Notes: generated by a model not told the origin, from the letters alone. A DNA stretch of 64,000 nucleotides from Kiritimatiellia bacterium (GCA_045617985.1 JAZLJP010000010.1:9961-73960); one strand, 5' to 3'; shown: positions 1,037 through 64,000, counted from the first letter of the stretch. Program-made: numbers and translations.

Positions 1037-2470
1037 TTAAAGCGCCGCGAGCTTCTTCGCCACGATCGGCCCGACGATCTTCGGATCGGCCTTGCCTTTC
1101 GAGAGCTTCATCACCTGGCCCACGAAGAAGCCGGCGGCGGCCTTCTTGCCCGCCTTGAAGTCCGCAACCGGGCCGGGATTGGCCGCAATCGCCTGATCGA
1201 CGAACGCCTCGAGAGCGGAGGTATCGGAAACGGCGCCAAGGCCGCGCTCCTTCACGATCGCCTCGGGATCGCCGCCCTTCTCGAAGATTTCGGGGAGAAG
1301 TTCCTTGAGCGTGGGGCCGTTGATCGTGCCCTTCGCGGAAAGCGTAATCAACGCGCGGAGCGCTTCGGGCTTCATCGCGCACTCGCCGATCGCCTTGCCG
1401 CTCGCGTTCAGGAGCGCCATCACGTCGCTCATGTAGAGGTTGCAGAGGAGCTTGGCGGTCTTCTTGTCGAGCCCCTTCGCGGCCGCTTCGAAATAGTCCG
1501 CATTCGCCTTCTGCTGCGAGAGAACGCCCGCATCGTATTCGGCGATGCCGTAGTCCTCGATCATGCGCGCACGGCGCGCCTCGGGCTTTTCGGGAAGGAG
1601 CTTGCGCCACGCCTCCACCTGCTCTTCGGAAAGCACGATCGGCACGAGGTCCGGATCGGGGAAGTAGCGGTAGTCGTGGGCGTTTTCCTTCGTGCGCATG
1701 GAGGCCGTCTCAAGCGCCTCGCCATCCCACCGGCGCGTTTCCTGCACGATCGGAATCGAATGCGCGATGCAGTCGCGCTGGCGGCGCGCCTCGTATTCGA
1801 GCGCGGCATGAATGCCCTTGAAGGTATTCATGTTCTTGATCTCCACCTTCGTGCCGAGCTGGGTGGCGCCCACGGGGCGAATGGAGATGTTGACGTCGGA
1901 GCGCATGTTGCCCTCTTCGAGGTTACAGTCCGAAACGCCGGCATAGACAAGCATTTCCTTGAGCGCGGTAAGATAGGCGATCGCTTCGTCGGCGCTCGCG
2001 AGATCCGGCTCCGAGACGATTTCCATGAGAGGCGTTCCGCCGCGGTTGAAGTCGACGCCGGAAGTGGTCGCATAGTGGTTGATCTTCGCCGCATCCTCTT
2101 CGAGATGGATGTGGTTGATGCGGATCGTCTTCGGCCCGTTCGGCGTTTCGATCGTCACACCGCCGCCGATGCAGAGCGGGTGCTCGTTTTCGGTGATCTG
2201 GTAGTCCTTCGCCATATCCGGATAGAAGTAGTTCTTCCGGTCGAAGGTCGCACGGCGGTTGATTTCGCAGCCGAGCATCAAGCCGCTCATCACCGTGAGC
2301 TTCACCGCTTCCTTGTTCATCATCGGCAAAGCGCCGGGATAGCCAAGGCACACCGGGCAGACGTTCGTGTTCGGCTCGCAGCCCGTCTTCAGGAGACAGC
2401 CGCAGAACATCTTCGTGCGCGTTTTGAGCTGCACGTGTGTTTCAAGGCCGATGGTCGTTTCAAAGTCCAT
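1037..2470 (-). CDS. gatB: Asp/Glu-tRNA amidotransferase subunit B
   Basis: IGLETHVQL, FDRKNYFYPD, HLEEDA, EEGNMRSDVNIS, YRYFPDPDL, C-terminal Yqey-like tail. Confidence 0.98.
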   Translation of the reverse strand: MDFETTIGLETHVQLKTRTKMFCGCLLKTGCEPNTNVCPVCLGYPGALPMMNKEAVKLTVMSGLMLGCEINRRATFDRKNYFYPDMAKDYQITENEHPLCIGGGVTIETPNGPKTIRINHIHLEEDAAKINHYATTSGVDFNRGGTPLMEIVSEPDLASADEAIAYLTALKEMLVYAGVSDCNLEEGNMRSDVNISIRPVGATQLGTKVEIKNMNTFKGIHAALEYEARRQRDCIAHSIPIVQETRRWDGEALETASMRTKENAHDYRYFPDPDLVPIVLSEEQVEAWRKLLPEKPEARRARMIEDYGIAEYDAGVLSQQKANADYFEAAAKGLDKKTAKLLCNLYMSDVMALLNASGKAIGECAMKPEALRALITLSAKGTINGPTLKELLPEIFEKGGDPEAIVKERGLGAVSDTSALEAFVDQAIAANPGPVADFKAGKKAAAGFFVGQVMKLSKGKADPKIVGPIVAKKLAAL

Positions 2471-4515
2471 TACTTAATCTCTTCTTTCTTCTTTTCAGGG
2501 GTGCCGAACGGCAAATGGAAAGTCGCCTTCTCAACATGGTTCGTGGCGAGCGGATCGCGGGCCTGTTCGTCGAGCGAACGCGTATCCAAAGCGGCAATGC
2601 CTTCGATGGCGTTGCCCGTGCGGTCGCCGGGCTCGAACTTCACGCCCGTCGTGTACATCCGCCCGAGAACGGCATTCTTCGGGAGGCCCACATCCGTCTT
2701 CACGTCATCCGGATCGGCAATGCCCACCGTCACAAAAACGAGGATCTCCTTCTGCACCTTCCGCCGGGACTTGCTGCCGAAGAGCTTGTCGCCGATCCAG
2801 GGCCAGTCGCGCAGCCACGGGATGCCCGTATCCACCTGCTCTTCCGTCGTCTTCGAAAGGCCGCCGATCACCGCCGTCGACCCCGCCTTGAGCGTGAAAT
2901 CCGTCACAAGGCGCTGCACGCTGATGATCGGGTAGCGGCTGCCTTCGGCGGTACCGCTTCCGGCGGTCACTTCGCCTGACTTTTCACTGATCGTCGGCAC
3001 GATCGAAACGGTGATGAGGTCGTTCGAGATGACGCGCGGCATCACTTCGAGGGAAATGCCCCAGCTGAAGAAGGCCTCCTTCGCGAAGAGGAGCTTATCC
3101 TCGCCCGGGATGACCGCCATCTTCATGTCAAGGTCGAGTGATTCGGAATTGCCGTTCAAGGTGCGCTTCGCGTTGATGGCCACATTCGGATACTTCTCGG
3201 TCATATCGACCGTCGCGCGCTTGCCGTTCGAAACGATGATCTTGGGGTTCGAGAAGATCTTCGCGTCCCCGCTCGTATCAAGCGCGCTCAAGACGAGCGA
3301 CATGTCGGTGAACGACAAGGTACCGGAGAAGTAGCTCACCCCGCCGTCGCGCCCGCTCGCCGTGGAGGTCGAGTCGCTCGTCAAGGTCTTCGCATGCGTG
3401 CCATCCGCGTTCTGCGTCTCGGAACTGGACGTGCGCTTCGTGGTCGTCTTGCCGGCGAGCCCGTAGGTGACCGTATCGCCCGAAGAAGACACCGTGCGCG
3501 AATAGTTCTGCACCGCGTTTCCGATATTGCGCTTGTCAAGGCCCCCGCCGAACGACGCCGTACCGCCCATGCCGTCGAGCATCGACCAGTCGATGCCGAG
3601 CTTGTGCTCGGCCGAGTTCTGAAGCTCCACGAAACGCGCCTCGATGTAGACCTGGCGCGGCTTGACGTCGAGCACCTTCAAGGCCTGCTCGCACGCATCG
3701 AGAATCACCCCGGGCGCCGTCACCATCACGGAATTCGCCTCGGGAAACGCCTGCGCGATCTTCGCCACCTTCCAGGCGATGCCGAAATCGCCGCTCCACA
3801 TGGTGTTGAACCGTTCCGCCACCTCCTCGGGAGAGGCGTACTGCAACAGGAACGTGCGCGTGGAAATCCGCCGCTTCACCTCGGCGGCCGCCACCTTTTC
3901 GGCCGCGAGATTGACGGCATTGACCGCCTGCACCACCGCATCCTGCGCCGCCTGCTTGAGCCGCACGTCGAGAGCCGCGTTCACGAGGTTCGTCACCACC
4001 GGGCCCACGCCCACCACGGGCTGGTTCGTGGCGACGTCGAAATAGGTATTCGTGAGCGCCAAGGCCGCCTCGGGCGAAATGACGCCGAGGACGCCCGCCG
4101 CCACATTCGTATTCGCCGCGCCGAGCGAGGCAAGATAGCCGGGCGGAAATGCCGCAGGCGCATTCGTCGTTGCCGAGGCCGCCAGAGCGGGGGCAGCGGC
4201 CGGAGAGGCCACCGCCCCGGCGGGCCGAGGCGCGAGCGGCGCGGGAAGCGACCCTGGCGGCAACATCGCCGCGAGGTTCGTCATCGCCACGAGAGAGGCC
4301 TGGTCTTCCGCATTGATCGGCGCCGGCGCAAGAACGTCGGCCGGCATGTTCGTGGGGAGAAGCGCAAAGGTCGTGCTGTTCGTCACCTGCACGAGAAAGG
4401 TCGCGACGTTCGTCACCGCCGGCATTTCGACTGCGCCATCGGCCTCCGCCCCCGCACAGACGAGGGCGAAGAGGGGCGCCACGAGGGCAACTGCGCATCT
4501 CCGGGCAAACGTCAC
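2470..4515 (-). CDS. Secretin (GspD/PilQ-type outer-membrane channel) with long Ala/Pro/Thr/Asn-rich N-terminus
   Basis: Signal peptide; N3-like domain (TRTFLLQYASPEEV...NSVMVT...LDVKPRQVYIEARFVE); secretin core LGIDW, GISLEVMPRV, IGGL...GIPWLRDWPWIGDKLF...EILVFVT. Overlaps gatA stop (GTGA) and gatB start (TAATG). Confidence 0.9.
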   Translation of the reverse strand: MTFARRCAVALVAPLFALVCAGAEADGAVEMPAVTNVATFLVQVTNSTTFALLPTNMPADVLAPAPINAEDQASLVAMTNLAAMLPPGSLPAPLAPRPAGAVASPAAAPALAASATTNAPAAFPPGYLASLGAANTNVAAGVLGVISPEAALALTNTYFDVATNQPVVGVGPVVTNLVNAALDVRLKQAAQDAVVQAVNAVNLAAEKVAAAEVKRRISTRTFLLQYASPEEVAERFNTMWSGDFGIAWKVAKIAQAFPEANSVMVTAPGVILDACEQALKVLDVKPRQVYIEARFVELQNSAEHKLGIDWSMLDGMGGTASFGGGLDKRNIGNAVQNYSRTVSSSGDTVTYGLAGKTTTKRTSSSETQNADGTHAKTLTSDSTSTASGRDGGVSYFSGTLSFTDMSLVLSALDTSGDAKIFSNPKIIVSNGKRATVDMTEKYPNVAINAKRTLNGNSESLDLDMKMAVIPGEDKLLFAKEAFFSWGISLEVMPRVISNDLITVSIVPTISEKSGEVTAGSGTAEGSRYPIISVQRLVTDFTLKAGSTAVIGGLSKTTEEQVDTGIPWLRDWPWIGDKLFGSKSRRKVQKEILVFVTVGIADPDDVKTDVGLPKNAVLGRMYTTGVKFEPGDRTGNAIEGIAALDTRSLDEQARDPLATNHVEKATFHLPFGTPEKKKEEIK

Positions 4516-5933
4516 GACCGAACCACCTCTTCGTAAGCCTTCGAAATGGCGAGGAGCTTGTCTTCACGATACGCGTCGCAAATGAACTGCACACCCACCG
4601 GCAAGGCGGGAGCATCGGCCGTCGGCCGCGTCCAACCCGTCGGCACGCTGATCGAGCAGTTGCCCGCAAGCGAGCCCGGAATCGTAAAGAGGTCGTTCAG
4701 ATACATCGTGAGCGGATCCTGCACCGCGCCGAGCTTGAACGCCGCCGTGGGCGAAACCGGCGAGAGGAGCGCATCGACCCTTTTGAACACCTCTTCGAAG
4801 TCGCGGCGGATGAGCGTGCGCACCTTCGCGGCACGCCCGTAGTAGGCATCGTAATAGCCGCTTGAAAGAACGTACGTGCCCATGATGATACGGCGCTTCA
4901 CTTCGGGGCCGAACCCTTCGGAACGGCTGCGCGAGTAGAGGTTGAACACGTTGTCGCTCCTCTCGGACCGATGGCCGTACCGCACGCCGTCGAAGCGCGC
5001 GTAGTTCGCACACGCTTCCGCCGGCGCCACGATGTAGTAGACCGCCATTGCGTAGTCGGTATGCGGCAGCGAGACTTCCTCCACCTCGGCGCCCGCCGCC
5101 GTGCAGCGCGCGATCGCCTCTTCCGTGAGGCGCTTCACTTCGGGGGCGAGACCGTCGATGAAATATTCCTTCGGGAGGCCGAACTTGAGCCCCTTGAGGG
5201 ACGCTCCTTCCATCGCCTTCGTGTAGTCGGGCACGGGCAGGCACGGCGTCGTGCCATCCATCTCGTCATGCCCCGCAAGAGCCTGCAGAAGGAGCGCCGC
5301 GTCGTCCACATTCTTCGTCATCGGGCCCACCTGGTCGAGGGAGCTCGCAAACGCCGTCACGCCGAAGCGGCTCACGCGCCCGAAGCTCGGCTTGAGGCCC
5401 ACGCAGTTGCAGAAACTCGCCGGCTGGCGAATGGAGCCGCCCGTATCCGTGCCAAGCGCGGCAATGCACAGGTCGCCGCCCACCGCCGCCGCGCTGCCGC
5501 CCGAACTGCCGCCGGGCACACGCGTGACGTCGTAGGGGTTCACGGTACGGCCGAGAGCCGAGTTCTCCGTAGAGGACCCCATCGCAAATTCGTCCATGTT
5601 CACACGGCCCGCCGGGATGAACCCGGCCGCGCGGGCGTTCTTGACCACCGTCGCGTCGTAGGGGCTCGTGTAGCCCTTCAGCAGCTTCGACCCGCACGTG
5701 CAGGGCTGGCCCGTCACGTTGATGAGGTCCTTGATCGCGAGCGGCACGCCCTTCGGATTCGCCTTCGCCTCAGCGAGCGCGCTTTCTTCGTCAAACGTCA
5801 GATAGGCGCCGATACGCGGGTTTTCGGCATGTACGCGATCGATGATCGCCTGCATGAGTTCCACGCTCGTAAAGTCGCCCTTCGCGAGGCCCTCGCGGGC
5901 CTCTTTGATGCCAAGCTTGTAAAGTTCGCTCAC
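4512..5933 (-). CDS. gatA: Glu-tRNA(Gln) amidotransferase subunit A
   Basis: Amidase signature PGGSSGGSAAAV, GTDTGGSIRQPA, NMDEFAMGSS, EVKRRIIMGTYVLSSGYYDAYY. Confidence 0.98.
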   Translation of the reverse strand: MSELYKLGIKEAREGLAKGDFTSVELMQAIIDRVHAENPRIGAYLTFDEESALAEAKANPKGVPLAIKDLINVTGQPCTCGSKLLKGYTSPYDATVVKNARAAGFIPAGRVNMDEFAMGSSTENSALGRTVNPYDVTRVPGGSSGGSAAAVGGDLCIAALGTDTGGSIRQPASFCNCVGLKPSFGRVSRFGVTAFASSLDQVGPMTKNVDDAALLLQALAGHDEMDGTTPCLPVPDYTKAMEGASLKGLKFGLPKEYFIDGLAPEVKRLTEEAIARCTAAGAEVEEVSLPHTDYAMAVYYIVAPAEACANYARFDGVRYGHRSERSDNVFNLYSRSRSEGFGPEVKRRIIMGTYVLSSGYYDAYYGRAAKVRTLIRRDFEEVFKRVDALLSPVSPTAAFKLGAVQDPLTMYLNDLFTIPGSLAGNCSISVPTGWTRPTADAPALPVGVQFICDAYREDKLLAISKAYEEVVRS

Positions 5934-6229
5934 GACTCCGCTCCTTCCACGATCTTGGGCAACATGAACTCGTCGCCCGTTCGGCCCGGCGCATTGCCAA
6001 GCGCCGCTTCGCGATCGAGCGACGGCCTTACCGTATCCTCACGGAAAGCGTTCACGATCTCGCAGCCATGCACCATGGGCGGAACGCCCTCCACATTCAC
6101 CGAGGAGATTTTCTCCACATACTTGACAATATTCTCAAGCTGCGGCTGGAAAACGGATTTTTCCTCATCCGTCAGCTCCAACCGCGCCAATTCCGCCACA
6201 TAGGCGACATCAATCGTGGGCTTGTTCAT
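5930..6229 (-). CDS. gatC: Asp/Glu-tRNA amidotransferase subunit C
   Basis: VAYVAELARLEL...FREDTV...NAP...FMLPKI; directly upstream of gatA. Confidence 0.96.
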   Translation of the reverse strand: MNKPTIDVAYVAELARLELTDEEKSVFQPQLENIVKYVEKISSVNVEGVPPMVHGCEIVNAFREDTVRPSLDREAALGNAPGRTGDEFMLPKIVEGAES

Positions 6230-14456: not shown

Positions 14457-14812
14457 TCACCGGAAAAGAATTGCGGTCGGATCCAACGGCGTCCCGACCG
14501 TGAAGGTTTCATCCAAATGGGAAATGGAGAATGGAAAATGAAAAATACACAAGGCCCCTACACCCATTTTACATTCTCCATTTTCAATTTTTCATTTGAG
14601 GCGAACACCGCCTCCACATTGTTCGACGGCGTAGCGAGACACGACAACGAAAACGCAAACTTCGCAGCCCCGCGCTGCCACGAGGACATGACGACGTTCG
14701 TCGCCACCTCTGTGTCGGCGTGAACGACCTGCGGCAGGAACAATGCCGTCGGCACTGTCGCCCACACGGGCATCATAGATAGAAGCAATAAAACTGAAAC
14801 AGCCTTTTTCAT
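14457..14812 (-). pseudogene. Disrupted small exported protein (cassette accessory gene)
   Basis: N-part MKKAVSVLLLLS...HADTEVATNV...ATPSNNVEAVF from ATG 14812 runs into a heptamer hairpin; a C-part in another frame reads HLDETFTVGTPLDPTAILFR* (TGA 14457-14459), 8 nt before the next ATG. Confidence 0.7.
14515..14598. repeat. Inverted array of GAAAATG-type heptamers
   Basis: AAATGGGAAATGGAGAATGGAAAATGAAAAAT...ATTTTACATTCTCCATTTTCAATTTTTCATTT around a ~20-nt loop. Confidence 0.8.
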
Positions 14813-16427: not shown

Positions 16428-19400
16428 TTAACGGAAAAGAATCTGGCAGCCCCGCAACACGCGAAGGCCTTCGTCGTTCGCCACAAGCGACGCACGTTCG
16501 TTCTTCGCCCGGAACCGAACACCCGGCTTGGCGCTCCACCGAATCAGATAGTCGCCCGACGGCACATGCCGGGACGGCATCACGACATCGATCAACGATG
16601 CGCCCGCCGCGAAGGAAAGGCTCTTCCCCACTGCATCCACCGCGTTCTGACGGTCCGTCAGGTCGATCGTTGCGCCGTTTTGCAACTCGACATTGTAGAT
16701 GTAGTCCGTCACCGGCGTATAGGTGCCGAATACCTGGATCTTTCCCGTGCCCGTGCTCGCCGTTTCACCGGCATAGCGCAAGGTGAGGTCGCGCACCTGG
16801 ATGCCCCTGTTAATCGTGAAGAACACCCCAAGGTCAAGATCCAGCGTGCGGGCATCGTAGATTTCCGGCACTTCGGGCCTTGTAGACGTATCGATCATGA
16901 ACTTGCCCGCGCCCGCCGCCACCATCGTGCCGTCCTTATAGGTACCGCAGCCGTCGAGAGTAAAGTCCTTCCCGGCGGCGATGTTCACGGTGAGCGTCTT
17001 GCCGCCCAAATCGATCGTATAAGGTTCGGAGTTCTTATTATGGCGCAGCGAACCTGCCACGTCAAACGTCGAGTTCGCGCGGAGCGTCACCTCGCCGCAG
17101 CACCAATAGCCTTTGGCCGAGCCGTTGACCAGATCCGCGCCGTGGTTCGCGAGCGTACCGCCGTTAAGGATGAGACCATAGTGTCCATAGTCGTAAAGTC
17201 CATTGACATCAAGCGTACCGCCCGCATCAATGGTGATCGTATTCGAGGCCCTGTCGGGCAATCCCCAAGGTTTGTTCGCGTTGATCCCCAGCGTCGCCTT
17301 CGCCGTACCGGCGACGATTTCCGTACCGTTCACATAGGATTGGTTGCTCTTCGCCACCACCAAAGTACCCTCGCCCTCTTTGACGAGCTTCACGTTGCCC
17401 AAGAGCGCAATCTTGTCGTTGGTCGCCGTGGCACCGGCCGGCACGTCGATGTGGACCTCGCCCACGAGCCCCGCTCCGTTTGCATCGGTGATCGCGAACG
17501 ATTTCGGCGTGACCCCCGAGAGGGACAACTGCAGGACATGGCCATTGAGATCGATGTTCCCATTCGCCGTAAGAAGCGCAAGATTCAACCCGCGCCAATC
17601 GCAATTCGCGCCAAGCGAAGAAGGCGCGGCAATCGCCTTGCAGAGGAACGGCGCACCGTTCGTGCAGCTGAACGTGCATCCCGCCGGTAAAATGACCAAC
17701 GTATCCAAGGTGGGAAGCGCCCCCTCGAGCGTCTCGCCCAACGCATTCTTGCACTGCCAGTTGGAAGAATCGGCAATGTCGCCGTTTCCGGAATTCATCC
17801 AGGTCGCCTCAATAACGGCATTGGGATTCACCTGCATCAGCAATTGGCCGTTCGCCACGGAAAACGTCATCATCGCGTCGCCCGAAGGCGTCGAACGAAT
17901 GAAATCAACCGGGCCATCCGGCAGATCGACGCCGGAGGAAATGAGCACATAGGGCGTTTCCCGAAGCGCCGCCGCACCGTACTTGTGAACATCGACGAGG
18001 AGCGGATTCTCCGGCGACGCTCCGGCGAAGATCACCGCCGTCGGCGCAAGGCTATCGCATTCCGTCACCATGACATCCACGGCAAGCGTCGTACCGCCTC
18101 TCAACGTGAGTTCACTCGTCACCGTGCAGGCGGCGATCATCTCGTTCTGAAGAGAGAACGTGCCTTCTGAAACCGTGAGGGGAATCGAAATCGTCTCGAT
18201 ACCGGCGGCATTGATCACCCGGTTGCCCACCTTTTCAAGGCGCGTGAAACCGGCGAAGTCATCCTTCATAAGATCGCCCTCATAGGCCTGAAACACCGTC
18301 CCCGTGACAGCGCACACGCAACCGGGATACAAATTATTGCCCGCCGCCTTCGCGCGGAATGTATTGTACCCGTTCACATCATACATGCCGATCGTGCCAT
18401 CGTTCTTGAGTGCAGGCACGAGTTCGCAAACCGGCGTTCCATCCGCCGTCGTCATCAAAAAGGAATAGAACCTGAGTTTTCCCTTGTCGGTCGGCGTGGC
18501 AGTTCCCTGGCGCAACGCGAAGAGCACCATCGTCTTCGCACAGTCGCCGGAGGTCTTCACCCCGGTCAAAGTCTCCGTCCAGTTCTCATCCCCCACCGGC
18601 TTCCACGACATCGCCGTCTTCGTGCAGTTCATGGAAATGCGCTGCTCATAGAACGCCGGATTCGATCCCAAAATCGCATTGCCGCGCAGATACCGGTATT
18701 GGCCCGTACCGCCCGCACCGCAGCGAACCGCAACTTCGTAGGCCTTCGTACTTCCCGTCTCCCGAACGGCAAACGCCGTCGCCCAATTGGAGGCCTGAAC
18801 CTTGTAGGCGTAGATATCCGTTTTAATCTCATAGCTCTCCTTCGGGATCACGCCCGTATCGATGTATTGGGTACCATCCGATTCGATGAAACTCAAACGG
18901 CGGTAGCCGTTCAGGGTTCCCGACTTCGCGGCGAACTTTCCCTCCACCGTATCCCACAATCCCGCATCGCCCGCCGGATTGAGGCAGGGGATGTAGTCGC
19001 GCCGAACTGCGCCGTCCGCCGATTCGACCCGGAAGGAAAAGAGCTTGTATTTCGACTTGTCCGAATCCGCACATGTCCCGCCATTGTTCAAGCCGAAGAT
19101 GTAGAGCGGAAAGACGCAGTCGCCATTCAACGCGGACGCGCTCACCGTCGTTCCCACCCCTTCTCCGACCGGTTTCCACGTGCTGTTCACGCCGTTGCAG
19201 ACGATTTCAACGCGACGGTTGAAAAAGTTGGTCACCACCACCACGGACGCCGAAGCGCGCAGGTAGCGAAGCGTAAAGTCGGCGCCCGCACTGCCAACCT
19301 TTCCATGGACGTCAAACTCAAAGGCGTGAGACGATGACTTGTCACGCGTGCCAAATGCCGCCGCCCACGTATTCTGGCTGTGCGGCACGCACATTTCCGC

Positions 19401-19598
19401 CCGAATCACGTCCGTCGCCTTAGGCAGGTATTCGGTGTTCACAAACTGCGTTCCCGTCGATTCCACGAACTCGACGCGCGTGTAATCCGCCGGAAGCGGA
19501 TGTATGGGCGTGTAGTCGTCCGCCCAGAGCGTACTCACGAACACACTGCCCATGGCACAGACGCCAAAGGCGATTGCACGAGAGAATTTCAGGTTCAT
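16428..19598 (-). CDS. Large secreted protein: two lectin-like domains, passenger-associated beta-strand repeat, C-terminal GxxIxxR motif
   Basis: Signal peptide; duplicated ESTGTQ.IDT...DYIPC...GLWD domain; LVKEGEGTLVVAKSNQSYVNGTEIVAGT; ends GLRVLRGCQILFR. Confidence 0.85.
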   Translation of the reverse strand: MNLKFSRAIAFGVCAMGSVFVSTLWADDYTPIHPLPADYTRVEFVESTGTQFVNTEYLPKATDVIRAEMCVPHSQNTWAAAFGTRDKSSSHAFEFDVHGKVGSAGADFTLRYLRASASVVVVTNFFNRRVEIVCNGVNSTWKPVGEGVGTTVSASALNGDCVFPLYIFGLNNGGTCADSDKSKYKLFSFRVESADGAVRRDYIPCLNPAGDAGLWDTVEGKFAAKSGTLNGYRRLSFIESDGTQYIDTGVIPKESYEIKTDIYAYKVQASNWATAFAVRETGSTKAYEVAVRCGAGGTGQYRYLRGNAILGSNPAFYEQRISMNCTKTAMSWKPVGDENWTETLTGVKTSGDCAKTMVLFALRQGTATPTDKGKLRFYSFLMTTADGTPVCELVPALKNDGTIGMYDVNGYNTFRAKAAGNNLYPGCVCAVTGTVFQAYEGDLMKDDFAGFTRLEKVGNRVINAAGIETISIPLTVSEGTFSLQNEMIAACTVTSELTLRGGTTLAVDVMVTECDSLAPTAVIFAGASPENPLLVDVHKYGAAALRETPYVLISSGVDLPDGPVDFIRSTPSGDAMMTFSVANGQLLMQVNPNAVIEATWMNSGNGDIADSSNWQCKNALGETLEGALPTLDTLVILPAGCTFSCTNGAPFLCKAIAAPSSLGANCDWRGLNLALLTANGNIDLNGHVLQLSLSGVTPKSFAITDANGAGLVGEVHIDVPAGATATNDKIALLGNVKLVKEGEGTLVVAKSNQSYVNGTEIVAGTAKATLGINANKPWGLPDRASNTITIDAGGTLDVNGLYDYGHYGLILNGGTLANHGADLVNGSAKGYWCCGEVTLRANSTFDVAGSLRHNKNSEPYTIDLGGKTLTVNIAAGKDFTLDGCGTYKDGTMVAAGAGKFMIDTSTRPEVPEIYDARTLDLDLGVFFTINRGIQVRDLTLRYAGETASTGTGKIQVFGTYTPVTDYIYNVELQNGATIDLTDRQNAVDAVGKSLSFAAGASLIDVVMPSRHVPSGDYLIRWSAKPGVRFRAKNERASLVANDEGLRVLRGCQILFR

Positions 19599-22500
19599 TG
19601 CCGTTCCTCCTTGTTGGTGTTTTTTAAGGGTAATTCCACTTTGATCTTGAAGAGTTCCACCTGGGCGGGAGACGGTACGCGTACAACCGAGTACACGCGC
19701 CGGTCGCCGAGATCCGGCGCATAGGTGAAGCGGGGCGTACCATCGACGAGCGTGAACGAGGTGATGCGGAAATGGTCGTTCGGATCGGAGGGACTCGTTC
19801 CCGCCACGTAGTCCTGCCAGAGCGGAATGGACTTGCCCCAGGGCGAGGGCGTTTCAAGGACCACCTGCGCGAACTCGGCTGCGCTGGCCCAGGCAAGCGA
19901 CGGCCGCACCGCAACAGCCGCATCGCGAATCCATTGATGGGGCACGGCGGGTACCACACCGCCCATTCCGTCAATGGTCGGCGGCGTCGCATCGCGCGTC
20001 TCGTCCCAATCCGTTACGGTCACGAGAGCGAAGTTACGCGCAAGCGGCGCCCCTTCGCCGTCGTAGGCGATCAGCGAAAGGCAATTCGGGTTGCCCTTCG
20101 CCGCCGTCAACGCCGTAAACGGCACGACTGTTTCCACGGTTGCATTCGCTACAGGCGCCGTGCCCACCTTGAGTCCGTTCATGAAAAGATCAACGCTTGC
20201 CACGCGCAGGTCGCCGAGCGCGAATGCAAGCTTCAACGCCTGACCTTCCCGAAGAATTCCGGCAGGTGCATTCACGAACGCGAGCGGCAGGGTCACGGCA
20301 TCGGCCGTATACGGATGAGTGGATGGCGTTCCCGCATCGTCCGCCACTTTCCGAAGCGAGGCCATGAGCGTGGGCACATCGCGGAATTGCCGATCCATCC
20401 AGGCGAGACGTTTCGTCAGAAACGCCTTCAAAGTCGCAATCCCGCTCGCGAACGTTCCCGTTGCGCGCGGCCACTTCCGCGCATTCGCTACCCCGGCTTC
20501 GGCCAAATAGGCGGCATGTTCGTCGATCTTCGCAATCATCTCCACGAACTTTGCGCGCGCGGGCGGATACGCCGTCCACAGCAGCGTGCAAAACCACGGA
20601 TCGTCCGCCCATTCCTTGTAAAACGAGTAGGGAGCGTTCTTGACATCGTCATTCACAAGCCACCGTTCGGGATCGCGCCGCTCGAAGGCGGTTCGCTCGG
20701 GGTTGCCCATGTCGTAATCGAAGTCCCACACAGGGCCGAACTTCAGGAGCTCGCCGCGATCCTTGTAGGCGAATCGGCTCAACGAGCGTGCATCCCAGTT
20801 ACCGCACATTTCCATCACGAGGAAATAGCTGACCATCGAATCGACGTCGCAATACTCCGAGTAATGGCGCTCCGCAGCGGTTCCATCAAACGATGTGCAG
20901 GCATCGAAGAAGTTCTGCAGATAATCCTGGCACCACGTCATCATCGCCGGATTGGACGAAAGATATTCGGGCGAAACCACCTTCGTGAGCAGGCCCCGCA
21001 AGTTCCCGGATGAGAGCGTAAATTTCGAGCGCTCGTCATCCCGATAGTCGAACTCGAAAAGATAACCGCCGGAAAGATCGTCCACCGCAGGATCAACCCA
21101 CGAAAAATCCTTATCGCCCCCTTCGATGCCACGTGCCGCCGCTTCCTCTTCCCAGTCGAAAATGTCAACGCGGTTCTTGGCAATGCGCAGATGTTCGCAG
21201 AAAAGATAGCACCCTTGCCATTCGCCGTTCAGGACGCATTCGACCCATGTCGACTTCATGCCGAGCTGACCGATCGCGTTGGCGAAGTCATAGGCGAGCT
21301 TGTCGCGCATCTGCGTGGGATCGAGATAGTTCGCAAGCAACACCCAATGCTTCGACTTCGGAATGCCGAACATCTTTGCCTTCTCGTCGAGCTTGATCTT
21401 CCACGGTTTCTTTGCGTAGCCCGCCGTGGAATTCCCGCGAACCTTGATCGTCATCGTCCCGTCGTAGGGACTCTTCCATTCCTCGTTCCCCTGCGCATAG
21501 AGGCGCCCCGTATGTTCTTCCTTCTTCGCCGTCGGGGACTTGCCGTCATCTGTCGAGAGATAGAGGACGGGAAGCCGCGAGAAGAAAAGGTCGCGTTCCG
21601 CCCAAACCCCAAGGGCGTCGTTCACCTCGCATTTGAGCCAATGCCCACGGTCCGCAGCAACGGGCGAGTAGGAAGGCGTGGACGAAACAACGCTCCACCT
21701 CTCACGGGCCGTCCCTTCGCTTCGAAGCCACCGGTGTTCCACCGGCGGCGTAATACCGGCAAACGGCCGCGCCGTCATGCCCAACGGCACGCCCACGCGC
21801 GGGCGAGAAATATCCAGCTCGACCTTCGTGCGGATCGTACCGCTTTCAAGCGAAAGCACACCCTCCGCCGTTGGACGCACGAGCGCCGCGGCAAGAGTTG
21901 CCGTTTCACCGTTCCGTTCGAGCGCAACCGGTCCTGCGAGATGGACGAGTTCACCGGCGGCAGGCACTCTGCCATCCGACCAGTTGGTGGCGGCGTTCCA
22001 ATCGCCACCCGTACCGCCCACCCATTCTTTCGCAACCGATTCAACCGGCAACTCGCCCTGACGCGCCATGAACCCTGAAAACTGACAGTCCCCTACGATA
22101 CTCACACCCGCAATCGCCTTCATCGCTTCGCGGTCGACGGGAATCCATTTCGCTCCTGAAACGGCCGCCAGCTGCTCGTAGCCGGTCTCCGTCTCAACCG
22201 CCACGCCCACATACCCCGCGCCGCCGATTTCCTTCAGGATCACCCGCAGATCATACCAGCCATCGGTCTCGAAGATCAGGCCCGTCGCACAAAGACGCGT
22301 CCAACGCCCCGCCACGACCACCGCCACATCCAGACCTCCTCGAACTCCGGGAACGAAGGTGAGCAGAAATTTACAGTCTTCAACGGGACAACCAAAATCC
22401 GTCGCTTCTCCCGGACTGAACCGAATGTCAAAGGAGACGAGATCATTTGTCGCCACCGTCTCGGGAACAAAAGTAAGGGACGGCCAAACGTCAAATTCAC

Positions 22501-22702
22501 CTTGGAGGGCCATCGCCGAGAATCCGGCATCCGTCGTTCGATTCGCGACAACAGTTCCCCTCGGGACCGCCGGACTACCCCAGCTCCCGCCGTACGCACC
22601 TTTGTCCGACAAGTTTTCATTCACCCCGTAGTCTGAAAAGTCGCCCCCAAACCAAGGGAGAGAACTCGCGAACATGGCTCCCAAGAGCGTCCCCATGCTC
22701 AT
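19595..22702 (-). CDS. CotH-family kinase domain secreted protein
   Basis: IKVRGNST..YAKKPWKIKL, WVLLANYLD, GGYLFEFD, GPVWDFD; C-terminal DYVAGTSPSDP...FKIKVE region. Confidence 0.9.
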   Translation of the reverse strand: MSMGTLLGAMFASSLPWFGGDFSDYGVNENLSDKGAYGGSWGSPAVPRGTVVANRTTDAGFSAMALQGEFDVWPSLTFVPETVATNDLVSFDIRFSPGEATDFGCPVEDCKFLLTFVPGVRGGLDVAVVVAGRWTRLCATGLIFETDGWYDLRVILKEIGGAGYVGVAVETETGYEQLAAVSGAKWIPVDREAMKAIAGVSIVGDCQFSGFMARQGELPVESVAKEWVGGTGGDWNAATNWSDGRVPAAGELVHLAGPVALERNGETATLAAALVRPTAEGVLSLESGTIRTKVELDISRPRVGVPLGMTARPFAGITPPVEHRWLRSEGTARERWSVVSSTPSYSPVAADRGHWLKCEVNDALGVWAERDLFFSRLPVLYLSTDDGKSPTAKKEEHTGRLYAQGNEEWKSPYDGTMTIKVRGNSTAGYAKKPWKIKLDEKAKMFGIPKSKHWVLLANYLDPTQMRDKLAYDFANAIGQLGMKSTWVECVLNGEWQGCYLFCEHLRIAKNRVDIFDWEEEAAARGIEGGDKDFSWVDPAVDDLSGGYLFEFDYRDDERSKFTLSSGNLRGLLTKVVSPEYLSSNPAMMTWCQDYLQNFFDACTSFDGTAAERHYSEYCDVDSMVSYFLVMEMCGNWDARSLSRFAYKDRGELLKFGPVWDFDYDMGNPERTAFERRDPERWLVNDDVKNAPYSFYKEWADDPWFCTLLWTAYPPARAKFVEMIAKIDEHAAYLAEAGVANARKWPRATGTFASGIATLKAFLTKRLAWMDRQFRDVPTLMASLRKVADDAGTPSTHPYTADAVTLPLAFVNAPAGILREGQALKLAFALGDLRVASVDLFMNGLKVGTAPVANATVETVVPFTALTAAKGNPNCLSLIAYDGEGAPLARNFALVTVTDWDETRDATPPTIDGMGGVVPAVPHQWIRDAAVAVRPSLAWASAAEFAQVVLETPSPWGKSIPLWQDYVAGTSPSDPNDHFRITSFTLVDGTPRFTYAPDLGDRRVYSVVRVPSPAQVELFKIKVELPLKNTNKEERQ

Positions 22703-22798
22703 TTTTATTCCTTAAAGAACATGAACATACGAATCAGTAAGTCAAAATCTCCATGTCACGAAACCCATGGATTGGGAATCTCCGCAAAAAGAGACACA

Positions 22799-25700
22799 TC
22801 ACCTGAGGATGATCATGATCCCGCTTCGGAAATAGAGACCATCGTCCTTTATTCCAAGCCGTCCCACGATTCCCGGCACCAACTTGAACGTGACGCTTGC
22901 TGCGGGCTTCGTCGGCCACGCAACCAACTGATCGTCTGGCTTCACTTTGCGCCTATCGAAATCGACGGTGATCGTCGCATCGGCGGTGAAAGTCAGTTTC
23001 GCGGCATCCAGGGGGAGCGTGCAATCCGAGAGGTTCAACTTCGAACCGTCCTTCAGCGTGTACTTCGCGGCCGTATCAGCAACCATCGGATGATATGTGC
23101 CGTTGACGGAAATCATCCCGTTACCGCTCACCGCTGCGCCGGGACGCACAGTCCAGTCGTGCACCTCGGCCGGCACTGCGACCGTCGTCTTGGCGGCGAT
23201 GTCGAAGTCTGCCGCCGCCGCGCGCAGAGAAGTCTTGTCGATTGCGAACGTACCCGCGCCGGAAATCTTGAAAAGACCCGCCGTCACGTCGGCATTATCA
23301 AGCCAGAACCCTTTGCCGTTCGCAACGACGACATCGAGTTCATACCCGCCGAGGTCAAGACGGGTCGGCGCATAATTGCTTCCGATCAACCCCAACGAGA
23401 ACGCGCAGTCGATCGACGAATCGTCCTCCAACGCGACTTTCGCGTTCTGCGCCCACGAATTCGTAATGTCCTTCGTCGAGTTGACGAGGCGGCCACCCGC
23501 CAAAACGGGGAAGAACAACACGTCGCCGCAACCACGAAGGTCTAAAATCGCCCCCGTAAACACCGTGACCGGCGTATCGCGCATTCCAAGATCGTTGGTG
23601 TAGCCACCACCGCCTCTCTTGAGCATCCCCGCGAGGATATCCGTACCGGCCGTGTAGGACTGCGTATTCCTCGTCGCGACGAACACCCCCGGGCCATCCT
23701 TGACGAATCGCAGGTTGCCGCTGAGCGTACAACCCGTGTTGTCAACCGTCTTTCCCTCGGCAACCGTAACATGGAATTCGCCAGAGACGTCTTCACCAGA
23801 CGAGGTAATCTCGCCGGAAGAGGGAACATCCGTCATCATAAGCGAATTCCCTGCGAGGTCGAGGGCACCGTCAATCACGAAGTCGTCCATGGCGCTCCAG
23901 TCGCAGTCATCCGCGAGCGTGCAACCGGCGAATCTGGCGAGTCCCCAGTTCCGATCCGCAGCGGAGGTGACGTTAAAGGCGATCGGCCCACCAAACGTCA
24001 CCGCTGTAATGCCCGCGCGCGGAAGCGCGTCGGCGAGTTCCACGCCGAAGAAATTGGTACACGCCCAGTTCGCGGCCGCATTCAGGTCTCCGCTCGTGCC
24101 CCCCTTCCAAGTCGCCGTAAAGGGCAACTGGTCATCGGCGGTCATCGTGCCTGAAAGCGACTTGCCCATATAGCCGGCGGCGGCTTTCTCCTCGCCCGCC
24201 ACGAGCACACCGCCGTCCGTGGGCGTAATGAAGCGCCCGCTCACGCAGTCGAAGAATCCTGCCGTTCCCGCGGCAGTCTTCACAGGAAGATAGTCGAGGA
24301 TCTTGCGCCCGTCCTTGCCTTCCATGGTCAGATAATACCACCAGCCATAAGTGTGGTTGCCGGAATCATCCGGGAGACGCCCGAGGTAGAGATCCAAACC
24401 TTTGGTTCCCAGCGGCGAGGACCAAATGGCGCTGCCCGCCTGGGGAATCACCTCTGCGCCATTGAGGGTGAGGGTATGGCCCGAATACTTGACGTCGTTG
24501 CAAGCATTATCGGAAAGAGGGTTGTTCGTATACTTATAGGTATAGTTTTCGTAAGACCACTGCGCAGCGACCGTTGTCTTCAAGTCGGGATACGACGAAC
24601 CGGCCATATAGAGCCGGAAACCCGAATTACCGGTCGAACCGCCGGTTCCTGACCCGAAATACGTCGCGTACTTGCTCATGAGACCCGTGCAATAATATCC
24701 CAGCACGAAACCATAGACATTGTAATCGCGAATGCCAGTATCAATCCCGTCGTCATTGGAATCCAACTGCACCCGGGCAAGGGGCGTGTACGCATCACCC
24801 GCGAAAACGCGGAAGAGCCGCCCCTCATCGAGCCCCTGCGCAACGAGATCGACAGTATAGGTACCGCCTTCGGCGGGAACAGACGCAGCGAGTTCCAACC
24901 GGTCGCTCCAGGCGGCGAGGTCGTCACCACCATCGGTCGTGCCGTGCGCGAGGAAGAGCTTCGTTCCCTGGCCGTAGCCGGCATTCACCCGAACCGTGAG
25001 CGTGGCCCCGGCCGTCTTGTCGATCGACACTTCCGCCGGCCGTTTCGCAAGCTGCGGGAAGCTCCAAATCTTGCCCACCGGGAGCGTCACCGCAGTTGCC
25101 GCGTTGGTGGTGGTGCCGGCCGTAAGCGCCCCCACGCCGGTCGCGGCAACGAAATTGCCGCTTGCCCGATCGAAAAATCCCACCACGTTGTTTTTGACAG
25201 CCGGCACATAGTCCAGCATCAGATCCCCGAACCGATCGTAGAACTTCACATAATACCATTTCGTGCGCGAGTCGGTTGTCGTTGCATCCCCGCTTCGGTT
25301 GAGACTGAGGGTGTGGCCGGAGAGCCCCACCGGCGACGTCACCCACGCCGAGGCGCCAGAGGCTATTTTGCTGTCTACGCCGTTGAACTTCAACGAATTG
25401 GCGCGGAAAACGCAAGTGTTCATCTGGTCTTTCTTGAGATCCACCACATTGTTATACGTATACTTGCCATCCGTCATACGTGCAAAATTCACCTTCAACC
25501 CCGTCTTCGCATGCCACAGCGACATGCCTCCTGATGAACCGGCAATCGACACGAGAATGGACGGATACCCATAGGAAGTGGAATCGACGGAAACGCTTCC
25601 CCGCGCCGTCGGGCAGAATCCCACATCCAGGGCGTAGACATCCGTGTCCTTGACGCCCGTATCGAGCCAGGTGTTCTCTGAATTGCTCCAAGCGTAGTCG

Positions 25701-26062
25701 AGCAGGGTGTAGGCGCCCGTCGTGAACAGCCTGAAACAGGCATCAGCCGCCACGCCGAGGTCGGCCAGCGCAACGGTGAACGCAGCACCTTCGGCCGGGA
25801 TCGACTCGCTCAACGTCGTAGCGTTCGTCCAATCGGAACGATTGAGACTGCGGTCAAACGGCGCGAACTTGCTTGCGGCGCCTGTCGAAGCGTCATAGGC
25901 CAGTTCAAGCCTGCAACCGGTCAACAATCCCGCCGGCACATTCACCACCAATGCCGTCGCATCGTCGTTGATATCGAGCGTCACCTCGGCGCCTGTCAAA
26001 GAGAACACCGCGAACAACACCGCACCGACCAAACCACGGTGGATAATCTTCTGAGACATCAT
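22799..26062 (-). CDS. Large secreted protein, paralog of 16428-19598
   Basis: Signal peptide; two ..DTG...LDY.P....GFFD..SG.F domains; FVKDGPGVFVATRNTQSYTAGTDILAG; ends GLYFRSGIMIILR. Confidence 0.85.
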   Translation of the reverse strand: MMSQKIIHRGLVGAVLFAVFSLTGAEVTLDINDDATALVVNVPAGLLTGCRLELAYDASTGAASKFAPFDRSLNRSDWTNATTLSESIPAEGAAFTVALADLGVAADACFRLFTTGAYTLLDYAWSNSENTWLDTGVKDTDVYALDVGFCPTARGSVSVDSTSYGYPSILVSIAGSSGGMSLWHAKTGLKVNFARMTDGKYTYNNVVDLKKDQMNTCVFRANSLKFNGVDSKIASGASAWVTSPVGLSGHTLSLNRSGDATTTDSRTKWYYVKFYDRFGDLMLDYVPAVKNNVVGFFDRASGNFVAATGVGALTAGTTTNAATAVTLPVGKIWSFPQLAKRPAEVSIDKTAGATLTVRVNAGYGQGTKLFLAHGTTDGGDDLAAWSDRLELAASVPAEGGTYTVDLVAQGLDEGRLFRVFAGDAYTPLARVQLDSNDDGIDTGIRDYNVYGFVLGYYCTGLMSKYATYFGSGTGGSTGNSGFRLYMAGSSYPDLKTTVAAQWSYENYTYKYTNNPLSDNACNDVKYSGHTLTLNGAEVIPQAGSAIWSSPLGTKGLDLYLGRLPDDSGNHTYGWWYYLTMEGKDGRKILDYLPVKTAAGTAGFFDCVSGRFITPTDGGVLVAGEEKAAAGYMGKSLSGTMTADDQLPFTATWKGGTSGDLNAAANWACTNFFGVELADALPRAGITAVTFGGPIAFNVTSAADRNWGLARFAGCTLADDCDWSAMDDFVIDGALDLAGNSLMMTDVPSSGEITSSGEDVSGEFHVTVAEGKTVDNTGCTLSGNLRFVKDGPGVFVATRNTQSYTAGTDILAGMLKRGGGGYTNDLGMRDTPVTVFTGAILDLRGCGDVLFFPVLAGGRLVNSTKDITNSWAQNAKVALEDDSSIDCAFSLGLIGSNYAPTRLDLGGYELDVVVANGKGFWLDNADVTAGLFKISGAGTFAIDKTSLRAAAADFDIAAKTTVAVPAEVHDWTVRPGAAVSGNGMISVNGTYHPMVADTAAKYTLKDGSKLNLSDCTLPLDAAKLTFTADATITVDFDRRKVKPDDQLVAWPTKPAASVTFKLVPGIVGRLGIKDDGLYFRSGIMIILR

Positions 26063-62403: not shown

Positions 62404-64000
62404 CTATCGCAACAGGATCGTGATACCTGTGTAGAAGTAGAGGCCGTCCGGTCTCGAAACGAGATGTCCGTCACGCCGGCCAAGGCGAATCGGTACAAAC
62501 TTCACATCTGTCGGCTGCACATTCCACGAGATGACCTTACGCTCGGGGAATTTGACATTGGCCCCGAGATCGACCGTCACGAGCGCCCCTTCGGCGAACG
62601 TCGTCTGGAACGTCACCGGGGTTCCGTCGGACCGGAGATTGTCCAAGCTCAAGGTCGACCACGGGAACTCCGTGCGTCCCGAAAGATCGAGCGTCGAACC
62701 ATTCTGCATCTGGATGGGCGGGAAGTAGTCCGTCTCCGGCGTAAACGTGCCGAACACCTTCGTCGTCGCGCTGCTCCAGCCCCAGAGGCCCGTATTGCGC
62801 GTAATGAGGTTGCGGCAGCTGAGGTCGCCCTTGATTTCGAGATTCGCACCGAGGTCGAAATCAATGCCCGGCGCCGTGATCGACGAACTGGCCGGAATCT
62901 GGAACCGTCCCTGCCCCGGCAGCACCACGATCTTGCCCGTATTGGGCGGATCCAAAACCGCGAGCGACGTCAACATCAAATACCGCGTGTCGCGAATCGT
63001 CGCCGTCAGCGTATGACCATTCATGTTCTTGAGGTTCTGAATCTGGGCCGTGCCATCGCCACCGCTGAAGAAGGAATCGGCCGACAATTCAAGGACGCAG
63101 TTGAACTGTTCCGAAAGGCCCACGACCGTCCCCCCATGGAGGTCCACCGTATGCCACCCCCAGCCCTTCTTCGTATTGAGGTCGAGCGAAGCGCCGGTTT
63201 CAATGACGAGCGTTCCCACGCCGCCGACAAAATTCTTGCCGTACCCGCCGAACGGGTTGTTGGTCATGCCGCTCGTATTCGGGCGCAGCGTGCCGGCAAG
63301 AACCGTGGTGCCGCCCGTATACGGCTGGTTCGCCCGCGTGGCGATGAAGAGCCCCGCGCCTTCCTTCACGAGTTTGAGGTTGCCGTCGAGCACGATCTGC
63401 GTGTTGTTGAAGGTCGCCCCCGTCGGCACGTCCACATGCAGTTCGCCCGGCTCATGCACCGAGGTATCCGTGCAGGTCCACGCTACCGACGTCGTCTCGT
63501 TCTGCCCCGTCATGAACAGCTTGTGGCCCTTGAGATCGACCGTTCGGCCGGCGAAGCCCGTGAACACGCGGATGCCGCGCCAGTCGCAATCGCCCGTAAG
63601 CTGCACGTCGCCATCGAGAACAATGCCCACCCAGTCGGTTTCCGCAGGGCAGGAAATGCAGAGCGGCCCCGCGAGATGAACCGTGGCATGCACGCCCGGC
63701 AAACCATTCGCCACCACGCGGTTCGCGGCATTCGAGCAGGCCCAGTTGGCGGGATTGGTCACATCGTCCGTTCCGGCCGCCCCCGTCCAATGGGCATTGA
63801 CGACCACCTTCGAATCCGGATCGTCCGCGAACGACTGCGTCCAGATTTCGATCTTCGCCACTTCATAGGCATCGGCCCAGAATCTCTCGTAACCGGCACG
63901 ATCGGAGGATGCCGTGAACGTCCAGTCCGTCGAACCGAACACGTTGTTCGCGAAGTTGCCAAGGCCGATTTCGTAGGGTCCCGACGTGAACCGATTGAAC
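62404..64000 (-). CDS. Large secreted protein, third paralog of 16428/22799 family (5' end outside window)
   Basis: Frame open to window edge; NWACSN, CDWRG, GELHVDVP, LVKEGAGLFIATRANQPYTGGTTVLAG; ends GLYFYTGITILLR. Confidence 0.88.
   Translation of the reverse strand, partial: FNRFTSGPYEIGLGNFANNVFGSTDWTFTASSDRAGYERFWADAYEVAKIEIWTQSFADDPDSKVVVNAHWTGAAGTDDVTNPANWACSNAANRVVANGLPGVHATVHLAGPLCISCPAETDWVGIVLDGDVQLTGDCDWRGIRVFTGFAGRTVDLKGHKLFMTGQNETTSVAWTCTDTSVHEPGELHVDVPTGATFNNTQIVLDGNLKLVKEGAGLFIATRANQPYTGGTTVLAGTLRPNTSGMTNNPFGGYGKNFVGGVGTLVIETGASLDLNTKKGWGWHTVDLHGGTVVGLSEQFNCVLELSADSFFSGGDGTAQIQNLKNMNGHTLTATIRDTRYLMLTSLAVLDPPNTGKIVVLPGQGRFQIPASSSITAPGIDFDLGANLEIKGDLSCRNLITRNTGLWGWSSATTKVFGTFTPETDYFPPIQMQNGSTLDLSGRTEFPWSTLSLDNLRSDGTPVTFQTTFAEGALVTVDLGANVKFPERKVISWNVQPTDVKFVPIRLGRRDGHLVSRPDGLYFYTGITILLR

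Follow-up and report, generated by a model that had tools for sequence, protein, structure and literature searches.

A short arginine-ended C-terminal tail on large exported proteins of a Kiritimatiellia bacterium: a candidate sorting or anchoring tag

Our study examined a 64,000-nucleotide stretch of DNA from a Kiritimatiellia bacterium (GCA_045617985.1 JAZLJP010000010.1:9961-73960; the whole stretch is referred to here as the window) and found that three of its proteins, whose genes are named here by their first coordinates, 16428, 22799 and 62404, end in a common tail, G-x-x-h-h-h-R-stop, where h is a hydrophobic residue. The last 7-9 residues form a free-standing tag, [P]-x-G-[L/T/F/M]-x-[I/L/V]-[F/I/L/Y]-[V/L/F/I]-R-COOH, which is placed on complete domains of mostly very large, Sec-exported, surface-type proteins. 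The tail is independent of the domain that precedes it and is strictly terminal; it is restricted to certain lineages, and it occupies the position that PEP-CTERM holds in homologous proteins. It looks like a previously undescribed address label of the cell envelope, and a role in export or anchoring is suggested.

A first-pass annotation of the window had picked out the shared ending, and translation of the three open reading frames (ORFs) agreed with it, the products of 16428, 22799 and 62404 ending in ...GLRVLRGCQILFR, ...GLYFRSGIMIILR and ...GLYFYTGITILLR, respectively (in longer form, ...DEGLRVLRGCQILFR, ...DDGLYFRSGIMIILR and ...PDGLYFYTGITILLR). The stretch resembling [LV][IV]xWxxxP..VxF that had been described ahead of each tail was likewise seen in the translations, and N-terminal signal peptides are visible in the 16428 and 22799 proteins. 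The annotation had also credited all three proteins with a passenger-associated repeat, LVKEGxG...Y.GGT..AG; this repeat is present in each of them, but a family threshold is reached by the 62404 protein alone (TIGR02601, 22.2 bits where the cut-off is 19.85), for which the Pfam PATR model gave 19.8, below its cut-off of 27. Apart from this TIGR02601 repeat, scans of the three tagged window proteins against Pfam and NCBIfam returned nothing. A small gene at 14457, proposed as a further example, had to be withdrawn as a chance match, as it is a 36-residue frame that was not picked by the coding-potential gene calls, and the 1 short frame in 741 that ends like the tail in the window compares with approximately 0.6 expected from the genome-wide rate (9 in 10,975).

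A scan of the proteome had been recommended in the annotation, and the whole assembly (4.6 Mb, 222 contigs, 61% G+C, 94% complete) was searched using a six-frame ORF table and a set of 2,498 crude gene calls based upon codon usage and coding potential. The R form of the tail was found in 134 of the 2,498 gene calls, far above the three first noted. The strict motif G[LIVMFY]x4Gxx[ILVMF]xxR-stop was present in 52 ORFs, 49 of which are longer than 300 residues (727-2456 residues), and a hidden Markov model (HMM) of the last 60 residues identified 87 ORFs with a terminal copy, the final residue being R in 86 and K in 1. The ending hhhhR-stop closes 138 ORFs of at least 200 residues, compared to 10 for hhhhK-stop, whereas none of the 18 remaining final residues gave more than 6 (range 0-6). 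K-form endings were seen in 11 genes and were counted as chance, because in two of the three that were scanned with Pfam (GH123 and GH2) the ending falls inside a known domain. Together, the 134 R-form and 11 K-form genes (145) encode 216,294 of 1,269,423 residues, or approximately 14% of the assembly, and the tail is found on 119 of the 277 genes of at least 1000 residues.

The composition of the tail was derived from 130 ORFs of at least 600 residues. Position -7 is G in 87 of the 130 and is followed by L, T, F or M at -6, by T, V, I or A at -5, by I, L or V at -4, by F, I, L or Y at -3, by V, L, F or I at -2 and by R at -1. The hydrophobic run therefore measures 4-5 residues (positions -6 to -2), the basic part consists of one terminal Arg with no cluster, and nothing resembles an invariant signature, as only G(-7) and the final R are prominent and P(-9) is a minority feature. 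The stop immediately follows the R in 130 of 130 hhhhR ORFs of at least 600 residues. All three stop codons are in use after the Arg (TAA 54, TGA 48, TAG 28), as are all six Arg codons, and there is no conservation downstream; this indicates a true terminus that is selected at the protein level. Readthrough or recoding past the tail was considered and rejected, given the use of three stop codons and the lack of conservation beyond the stop.

A crude signal-peptide rule was positive in 91 of 128 carriers of at least 600 residues; of the 37 carriers that it missed, 11 are truncated by a contig end, and in many of the others a signal peptide is visible in the N-terminus by eye. The rule is unspecific, as it was also positive on 284 of 516 untagged large proteins. 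Two tagged ORFs (G000:C104:30897-32210 and C151:15564-21134) lack an obvious classical signal peptide and instead carry 'GKP[YH]AGNP[HY]VRF[DG]' near the N-terminus.

Portability of the tail was assessed by clustering the 121 residues upstream of the last nine residues (blastp, 1e-4) for R-tagged genes of at least 250 residues (n=130). The sequences preceding the tail fell into 27 clusters with sizes of 81, 13, 5 (three of them R-ended), 4, 4 and so on down to singletons, such that the 26 clusters other than the main family together hold 49 of the 130 genes. Outside the main family, the cargo identified by Pfam comprises CotH kinases, GDSL esterases with immunoglobulin (Ig) domains (Big_5), a C25 peptidase, proteins with PA14 and F5/8 type C domains, and LamG proteins. 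To describe individual positions, one member was taken per non-main cluster (n=26), and positions -6, -7 and -9 were used, which were not part of the selection rule. G(-7) was found in 11 of the 26 clusters compared to a background of 6.6% (p = 3e-7), P(-9) in 7 of 26 compared to 5.6% (p = 4e-4), and one of L, T, F or M at -6 in 22 of 26.

The main family is modular, and a cap domain of approximately 50 residues (TVxVDxxGRxLxxGExLVxWxxxPxNVxF....DGLY) precedes its tail. The cap domain also occurs internally, typically every ~480-680 residues. In all 33 internal copies the HMM match ends at or before position 54 of 59, and what follows is a linker and then the 'WTGxAGDGDxxNPxNWxC' of the next module, never the hydrophobic run. 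The spread over 26 other clusters and the internal caps without a tail argue against the possibility, raised in the annotation, that the motif is a structural strand peculiar to a single paralog family. Reading by eye, the end of an Ig-type carrier, ...GTYTVIAYNKNGSVQSASATVRIIL followed by PGTLILLR, consists of a complete I-set-like end and then the tail. Tagged CotH paralogs end approximately 10 residues past the strand ...ARNFALVTV, as ...TVILLR or ...GTLFILR, and the untagged CotH protein of the window (19595) runs on for approximately 110 residues past the same strand as an extra domain that ends in ...FKIKVELPLKNTNKEERQ.

The CotH family was itself seen to have two alternative C-terminal endings. 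The untagged paralogs (19595-22702 in the window, and G000 C16_27759, C16_47819, C128_2265, C217_7429 and C2_11065) have the common end ...[RK]FF[KR][IV][KR]V.LP, which sits on an extra domain of ~110 residues that is absent from the tagged paralogs.

AlphaFold was used to model the tail in two settings. Model 1, of the last 470 residues of the 22799 protein with an alignment of 43 paralogs, was a confident beta-helix with a mean predicted local distance difference test (pLDDT) score of 91.8. The last assigned strands are residues 451-455 and 458-462 (GLYFR), the tail (residues 463-470) is coil, and the last 10-residue block has a pLDDT of 83 compared to 95-97 before it. Model 2 was of an unrelated family, using the last 258 residues of a 3517-residue protein and 13 paralogs, with a final reporting block that coincides with the last eight residues; these eight residues were modelled as coil with a pLDDT of 67 beside an adjoining 96-97. 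The tail is therefore predicted to lie outside the sheet in two unrelated domains. Foldseek neighbours of the module were all weak, and comprised a C-terminal passenger fragment of IcsA first (best E-value 4e-3), followed by Ag43, EspP, Hap and pertactin. A structure prediction with the last 110 residues in triplicate, run without controls, scored 0.00, which speaks neither for nor against self-association.

A set of 43 tails was compared to NCBIfam and Pfam at E-values of up to 10 and returned unrelated single-member matches only, noise that speaks against the tail being an already defined sorting domain. PF07589 and TIGR02595 matched 0 of the 43 tails at this threshold and none of the whole window proteins at E-values of up to 0.01, and PF18962/TIGR04183 (Por_Secre_tail) had no match among the 43 tails. 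These results are in agreement with the annotation, which had judged the tail too short for a PEP-CTERM transmembrane helix and unlike the C-terminal domain (CTD) of type IX secretion systems (T9SS). A resemblance to PEP-CTERM exists, as both lie at the extreme C-terminus of many proteins per genome, which bear signal peptides but show no other relationship to one another, and the elements follow the same order, from Pro and small residues to a hydrophobic run and Arg. However, the tail has five hydrophobic residues and not a membrane helix, one Arg and not a cluster, and no PEP motif; it also coexists with genuine PEP-CTERM proteins, and exosortase does not co-vary with it. Tripartite C-terminal sorting signals are defined by seven attributes, and of these the tail has the terminal position, the many copies per genome, the signal peptides of its carriers and the unrelatedness of those carriers, but lacks three invariant signature residues, a hydrophobic segment of helix length and a basic cluster of two to five residues (10.1101/2023.06.07.544157).

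With the T9SS CTD the tail has in common that it is a C-terminal signal of Sec-exported surface enzymes and adhesins, and a C25-family peptidase is among its carriers. The last strand of the T9SS CTD is likewise hydrophobic with a basic final residue. However, the CTD is a beta-sandwich of 70-100 residues, whereas the tailed proteins share only 7-9 residues behind diverse domains. Searches of the genome for SprA and PorV were negative, which is a soft absence, as the SprA control was negative everywhere and the PorV control was weak. Passengers of the type Va secretion system offer a further comparison, as the module of the main family combines a beta-helix, a PATR-like repeat and a conserved cap at its end, with passengers as its weak structural neighbours. 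Tailed proteins differ in having neither a linker helix nor a beta-barrel, ending right after the cap and tag, and the tag is also found on proteins that are not beta-helical. The annotation had noted this missing barrel, and PF03797 was indeed unmatched throughout the genome (assembly 94% complete), with a control that was positive in 3 reference genomes; PF03865 (TpsB/ShlB) had no genome match either, with a control that was positive nowhere.

One Omp85 gene was found in the genome. Its BamA ends in ...FSFSIGYDF and the other barrel candidates (a TonB receptor, a FadL-like protein and DUF481) end in F or W; as the organism's own barrels carry canonical endings, the tail is not a local dialect of the beta-signal of outer-membrane proteins (OMPs), from which it differs in ending with Arg and in having no preceding barrel. 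Beta-augmentation, as in pilins with PapD-type chaperones or OMP C-termini read by the PDZ domain of DegS, served as a working analogy, as it too involves a short terminal hydrophobic strand. By this analogy, a free carboxylate that fixes the register would explain why nothing follows the last residue. Those ligands, however, end in a hydrophobic or aromatic residue and not in Arg, and nothing found here ties the tag to such a chaperone or to a PDZ partner. Judging by listings and abstracts, no published description of such a tag was found, and no literature joining Kiritimatiell- with PEP-CTERM.

The distribution of the tail was estimated using the DNA pattern GGN NNN NNN NTN NTN NTN MGN TRR, with the reversed pattern as a control, across 121 genomes of the order and 176 phylum genomes of other orders and classes. 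In calibration on this genome, the pattern gave 116 matches compared to 2-22 when the last residue was another one or the stop was shifted or absent. The control count was 42 for this genome; six other genomes of the genus gave 35-88 matches (control 10-27), and among genomes of other families G007 gave 94 (control 25), G306 gave 87 (control 38), G313 gave 101 (control 48) and G335 gave 96 (control 37). All 7 members of the genus were thus enriched, as were several families of the order; among the 120 order genomes apart from this one, 15 had at least 40 matches at no less than twice the control. Tails of the form GT[VA]hhhR-stop recurred among the matches listed for G304, G306, G312 and G315. 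Families f3 and f5 were little enriched, with no genome having 40 matches at twice the control, and none of the 176 phylum genomes outside the order had 40 matches at even 1.5 times the control.

Relatives of the cap-plus-tail domain were more narrowly distributed in genomes, as strong matches were found only in this genome and one other of the genus (301 searched). In a library of 1.84 billion representatives, 11,698 relatives of the terminal module were identified at an E-value of ≤0.001; the best 148 of these end mostly in R (110), then in K (20) or Q (6), with Y, W, H or L in a small number, and the hydrophobic run is nearly always kept, and one relative of 5,881 residues ends in ...FNLVWKF, a barrel-type-looking terminus. 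A profile search with the module over 201 phylum genomes recovered PATR-type homologues in other classes. Seven of the other-class ORFs end inside their locus, five with VPEPS-helix-RRR (PEP-CTERM), one with ...AGYRYAW (autotransporter-like) and one otherwise, and a homologue from the same genus ends in ...SGTVFIVR. The tag thus fills the slot that known anchoring or translocation devices occupy in homologues. Related proteins of one f3 genome end in ...PxP[LI][KR]VRVKK, and in a tag-poor family of the order (L043 and L054, G116:C3) the proteins that carry the related cap domain finish in ...APxP[LI][KR]VRVKK, which may be a lineage-specific alternative terminal motif.

We favour the explanation, to which we would assign about an even chance, that this is a portable, strictly terminal tag, that following Sec export a factor other than exosortase reads it in trans, and that on large surface proteins it replaces PEP-CTERM in part of one order. 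The signal peptide would carry the protein over the inner membrane, and the five-residue hydrophobic run would be too short to keep it there. A factor in the envelope would then read the tail in trans, probably binding it as an extended strand with the register fixed by the terminal Arg and the free carboxylate, and would either send the protein to outer-membrane export or keep it at the cell surface. That the tail is read in trans, how it is bound and where the tagged proteins end up are inferred. More tentatively, and somewhat short of an even chance, this would amount to a new type of sorting or retention pathway, in which a 7-residue C-terminal strand with no helix, basic cluster or folded domain is read at its free C-terminus by an envelope receptor or enzyme and the role of PEP-CTERM has been taken over.

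Several of our observations count against a portable tag with a dedicated reader. The 81 of 130 carriers in the main family are one paralog family, and therefore much of the raw count is a single expansion. In model 1 the pLDDT of the tail itself would be approximately 80 if the two strand residues of the final block score 95, which is not the behaviour of a floppy peptide, and the tail may be packing onto the domain. Variation of the final residue in the metagenomic relatives weakens the case for recognition of the Arg itself, and where assemblies are small or fragmented, some of the shortfall in matches may be due to giant genes left unassembled. The flanks of the carriers contained no recurrent unknown gene, the neighbours being ordinary genes for oxidoreductases, glycosidases and CotH paralogs. 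Of the 121 genomes of the order, 115 have an exosortase, tag-rich and tag-poor alike, and the enzyme is therefore uninformative on the tag. Peptidase C25 was considered because a tagged C25 protein suggested a PorU-like enzyme, but was rejected, being missing in the tag-rich G068, G074, G368 and G377 and common in tag-poor families. The secretin of the window, one of five in the genome, was also rejected, as it has no close ortholog in the tag-rich G007 and its patchy orthologs include tag-poor genomes.

Contexts of barrel proteins with no assigned function gave no lead to a reader. PEP-CTERM matches, all of them small ORFs, numbered 5 in this genome and 1-7 across the genus; counts reached 36 in the tag-poor f3 g9, were 0-8 in the tag-poor f5 and were low in tag-rich genomes, and PEP-CTERM and tag counts showed no clean complementarity. 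The genome has one exosortase fused to an EpsI-like DUF3485. Elsewhere, at G000:C127:20073-29243, a secretin (PF00263) adjoins three ORFs whose N-terminal sequences, by eye, resemble an FlhA/SctV-type export gate, an SctJ-like lipoprotein and an FHA protein, and from these similarities the cluster is possibly a type III-like apparatus.

Other explanations for the tail were also weighed. It could be a miniaturized PEP-CTERM, having lost most of the helix and the Arg cluster, that exosortase still cleaves or transfers. The tail sits exactly at the PEP-CTERM position of the other-class homologues and keeps the order of Pro, small residues, hydrophobic run and Arg, P(-9) is enriched, and exosortase is both near-universal in the order and, in this genome, fused to DUF3485. 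Moreover, tails such as ...PPDPTTVILLR, ...VPEKASVILLR and ...NARPSGLTLIVR look truncated beside the genome's own PEP-CTERM, ...VPEPSSGLLILLGG...RRRRR. However, canonical PEP-CTERM proteins persist here and throughout the genus, and therefore a kept exosortase needs no extra explanation; its presence is constant whatever the abundance of the tag, and the tails have no PEP motif and no match to the PEP-CTERM models. Five hydrophobic residues are also too few to retain a substrate in the membrane so that an intramembrane enzyme can act on it, as is established for this class (10.1101/2023.06.07.544157), and we regard this derivation as quite improbable. An intrinsic role with no reader in trans, which we consider unlikely, would make the tail a terminal cap over an exposed hydrophobic edge, a nucleus for folding, or a beta-prone, sticky end, gatekept by the Arg, through which carriers associate with one another or with the membrane surface. 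The contiguous run of I, L, V and F is strongly beta-prone, the tail usually comes after a strand and a tight turn (e.g. ...LVLRNxxPSG- or ...DGLYVxRG-), no machinery was found, and the score of the tail in model 1 fits packing. This explanation has difficulty with one consensus being shared behind at least 27 sequences that are unrelated to each other, some of them complete Ig-like or lectin-type ends, with internal cap copies that manage without the tail, and with the drop to 67 in model 2; furthermore, a cap needs no strict terminality, yet approximately 130 genes show it.

It is very improbable that the tail is a mimic of the beta-signal, read by the beta-barrel assembly machinery (BAM) like the last strand of an OMP, such that passengers dock at or thread through BamA as 'autotransporters' with a borrowed barrel. 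The general beta-signal pattern is polar-x-G-x-x-hydrophobic-x-hydrophobic, which the tail fits with an offset of one residue. The modules resemble autotransporter passengers, according to the weak Foldseek matches, only one Omp85 gene is known from the genome, and the searches turned up neither a separate TpsB, for which the control was positive nowhere, nor an autotransporter barrel. Nevertheless, the genome's own barrels end in an ordinary F or W, from which the final Arg deviates, and the hydrophobic residues of the tail are contiguous and not alternating. In addition, one strand cannot close a barrel, and approximately 130 abundant clients would block BamA.

The features of the window are listed in Table 1; its gene calls are nearly all on the minus strand. 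A dedicated secretion operon was not seen in the window, the remainder of which consists of housekeeping and carbohydrate genes. Membership of the 27602 protein is uncertain, as its Gly sits one position further out than in the tag. A conserved N-terminal domain that begins with 'LPxGYTxLEYIxSTGxQYIDTG' comes right after the signal peptide in many G000 carriers; it is present in two copies in the 16428 protein and has no Pfam or NCBIfam match. The secretin gene lies between gatB and gatA, with gatC next after gatA, an odd location for the gene of an outer-membrane channel. The 914-residue protein contains a Cys/Gly-rich stretch, ...CSGGCSCGGCSAGG...GGGCGCGGSGGG..., and the 993-residue protein ends like a K-ended form of the tag and may or may not be a carrier.

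Table 1. Coordinates of tagged genes, their tags and other features of the window
Feature	Position	Strand	Remarks
Gene for signal-peptide protein, 1056 residues	16428..19598	-	Two N-terminal 'YTxhEhhESTGTQ' domains, one beta-helix/PATR-like module, cap domain, tag; translation, terminal HMM match (independent E-value 2e-12), representative-search match
N-terminal part of 16428 gene	18700-19500	-	Two copies of 'LPxGYTxLEYIxSTGxQYIDTG' domain
Tag GCQILFR of 16428 gene	16431..16451	-	Stop at 16428-16430
Gene for signal-peptide protein, 1087 residues	22799..26062	-	Beta-helix module, cap domain, tag; translation, AlphaFold
Tag GIMIILR of 22799 gene	22802..22822	-	Stop at 22799-22801
Cap domain plus tag of 22799 gene, ~58 residues	22802..22975	-	TVxVDxxxR..LVxWxxxPxxVxF....DDGLY; alignment, HMM matches; without the tag, this domain ends internal modules in multi-module paralogs
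3' part of gene for protein of at least 1367 residues	62404..63999 (continues past window end)	-	5' end at contig edge; PATR repeat, cap domain, tag
Tag GITILLR of 62404 gene	62407..62427	-	
CotH-kinase-domain protein without tag, 1035 residues	19595..22702	-	PF08757 1.4e-33; between first two tagged genes
Possible fourth carrier, exported, 718 residues	27602..29758	-	No Pfam family; ends ...NGYLWLLVR
36-residue frame ending PTAILFR	14457..14567	-	Chance match outside the feature
gatB	1037-2470		
Secretin gene	2470-4515	-	PF00263 3.3e-28, Secretin_N
gatA	4512-5933		
gatC	5930-6229		
Protein of 914 residues	11704-14448	-	N-terminal hydrophobic segments; no Pfam family
Protein of 993 residues	51388-54369	-	Bacterial TSP3 repeats (PF18884); ends ...NLFLVK

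In summary, the short C-terminal sorting signals LPXTG, PEP-CTERM, GlyGly-CTERM, PGF-CTERM and MYXO-CTERM have, in every case, pointed the way to a dedicated processing enzyme, and they have yielded rules by which the cell surface of whole phyla can be predicted. To our knowledge, the described short C-terminal sorting signals all contain a membrane-spanning helix. If the tail is indeed such a signal, cells with two membranes would have another means of reading a C-terminus, or a known machinery would accept far shorter signals than has been assumed, and the tag could be a small handle for display or localization experiments. One order of Planctomycetes-Verrucomicrobia-Chlamydiae (PVC) bacteria would then tag approximately 5% of genes and approximately one seventh of coding DNA. 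The tail would serve as a one-line predictor of the surface or secreted proteome in these uncultured, polysaccharide-degrading gut and sediment bacteria, a predicted proteome that spans adhesin-like beta-helices, CotH kinases, esterases and lectins.

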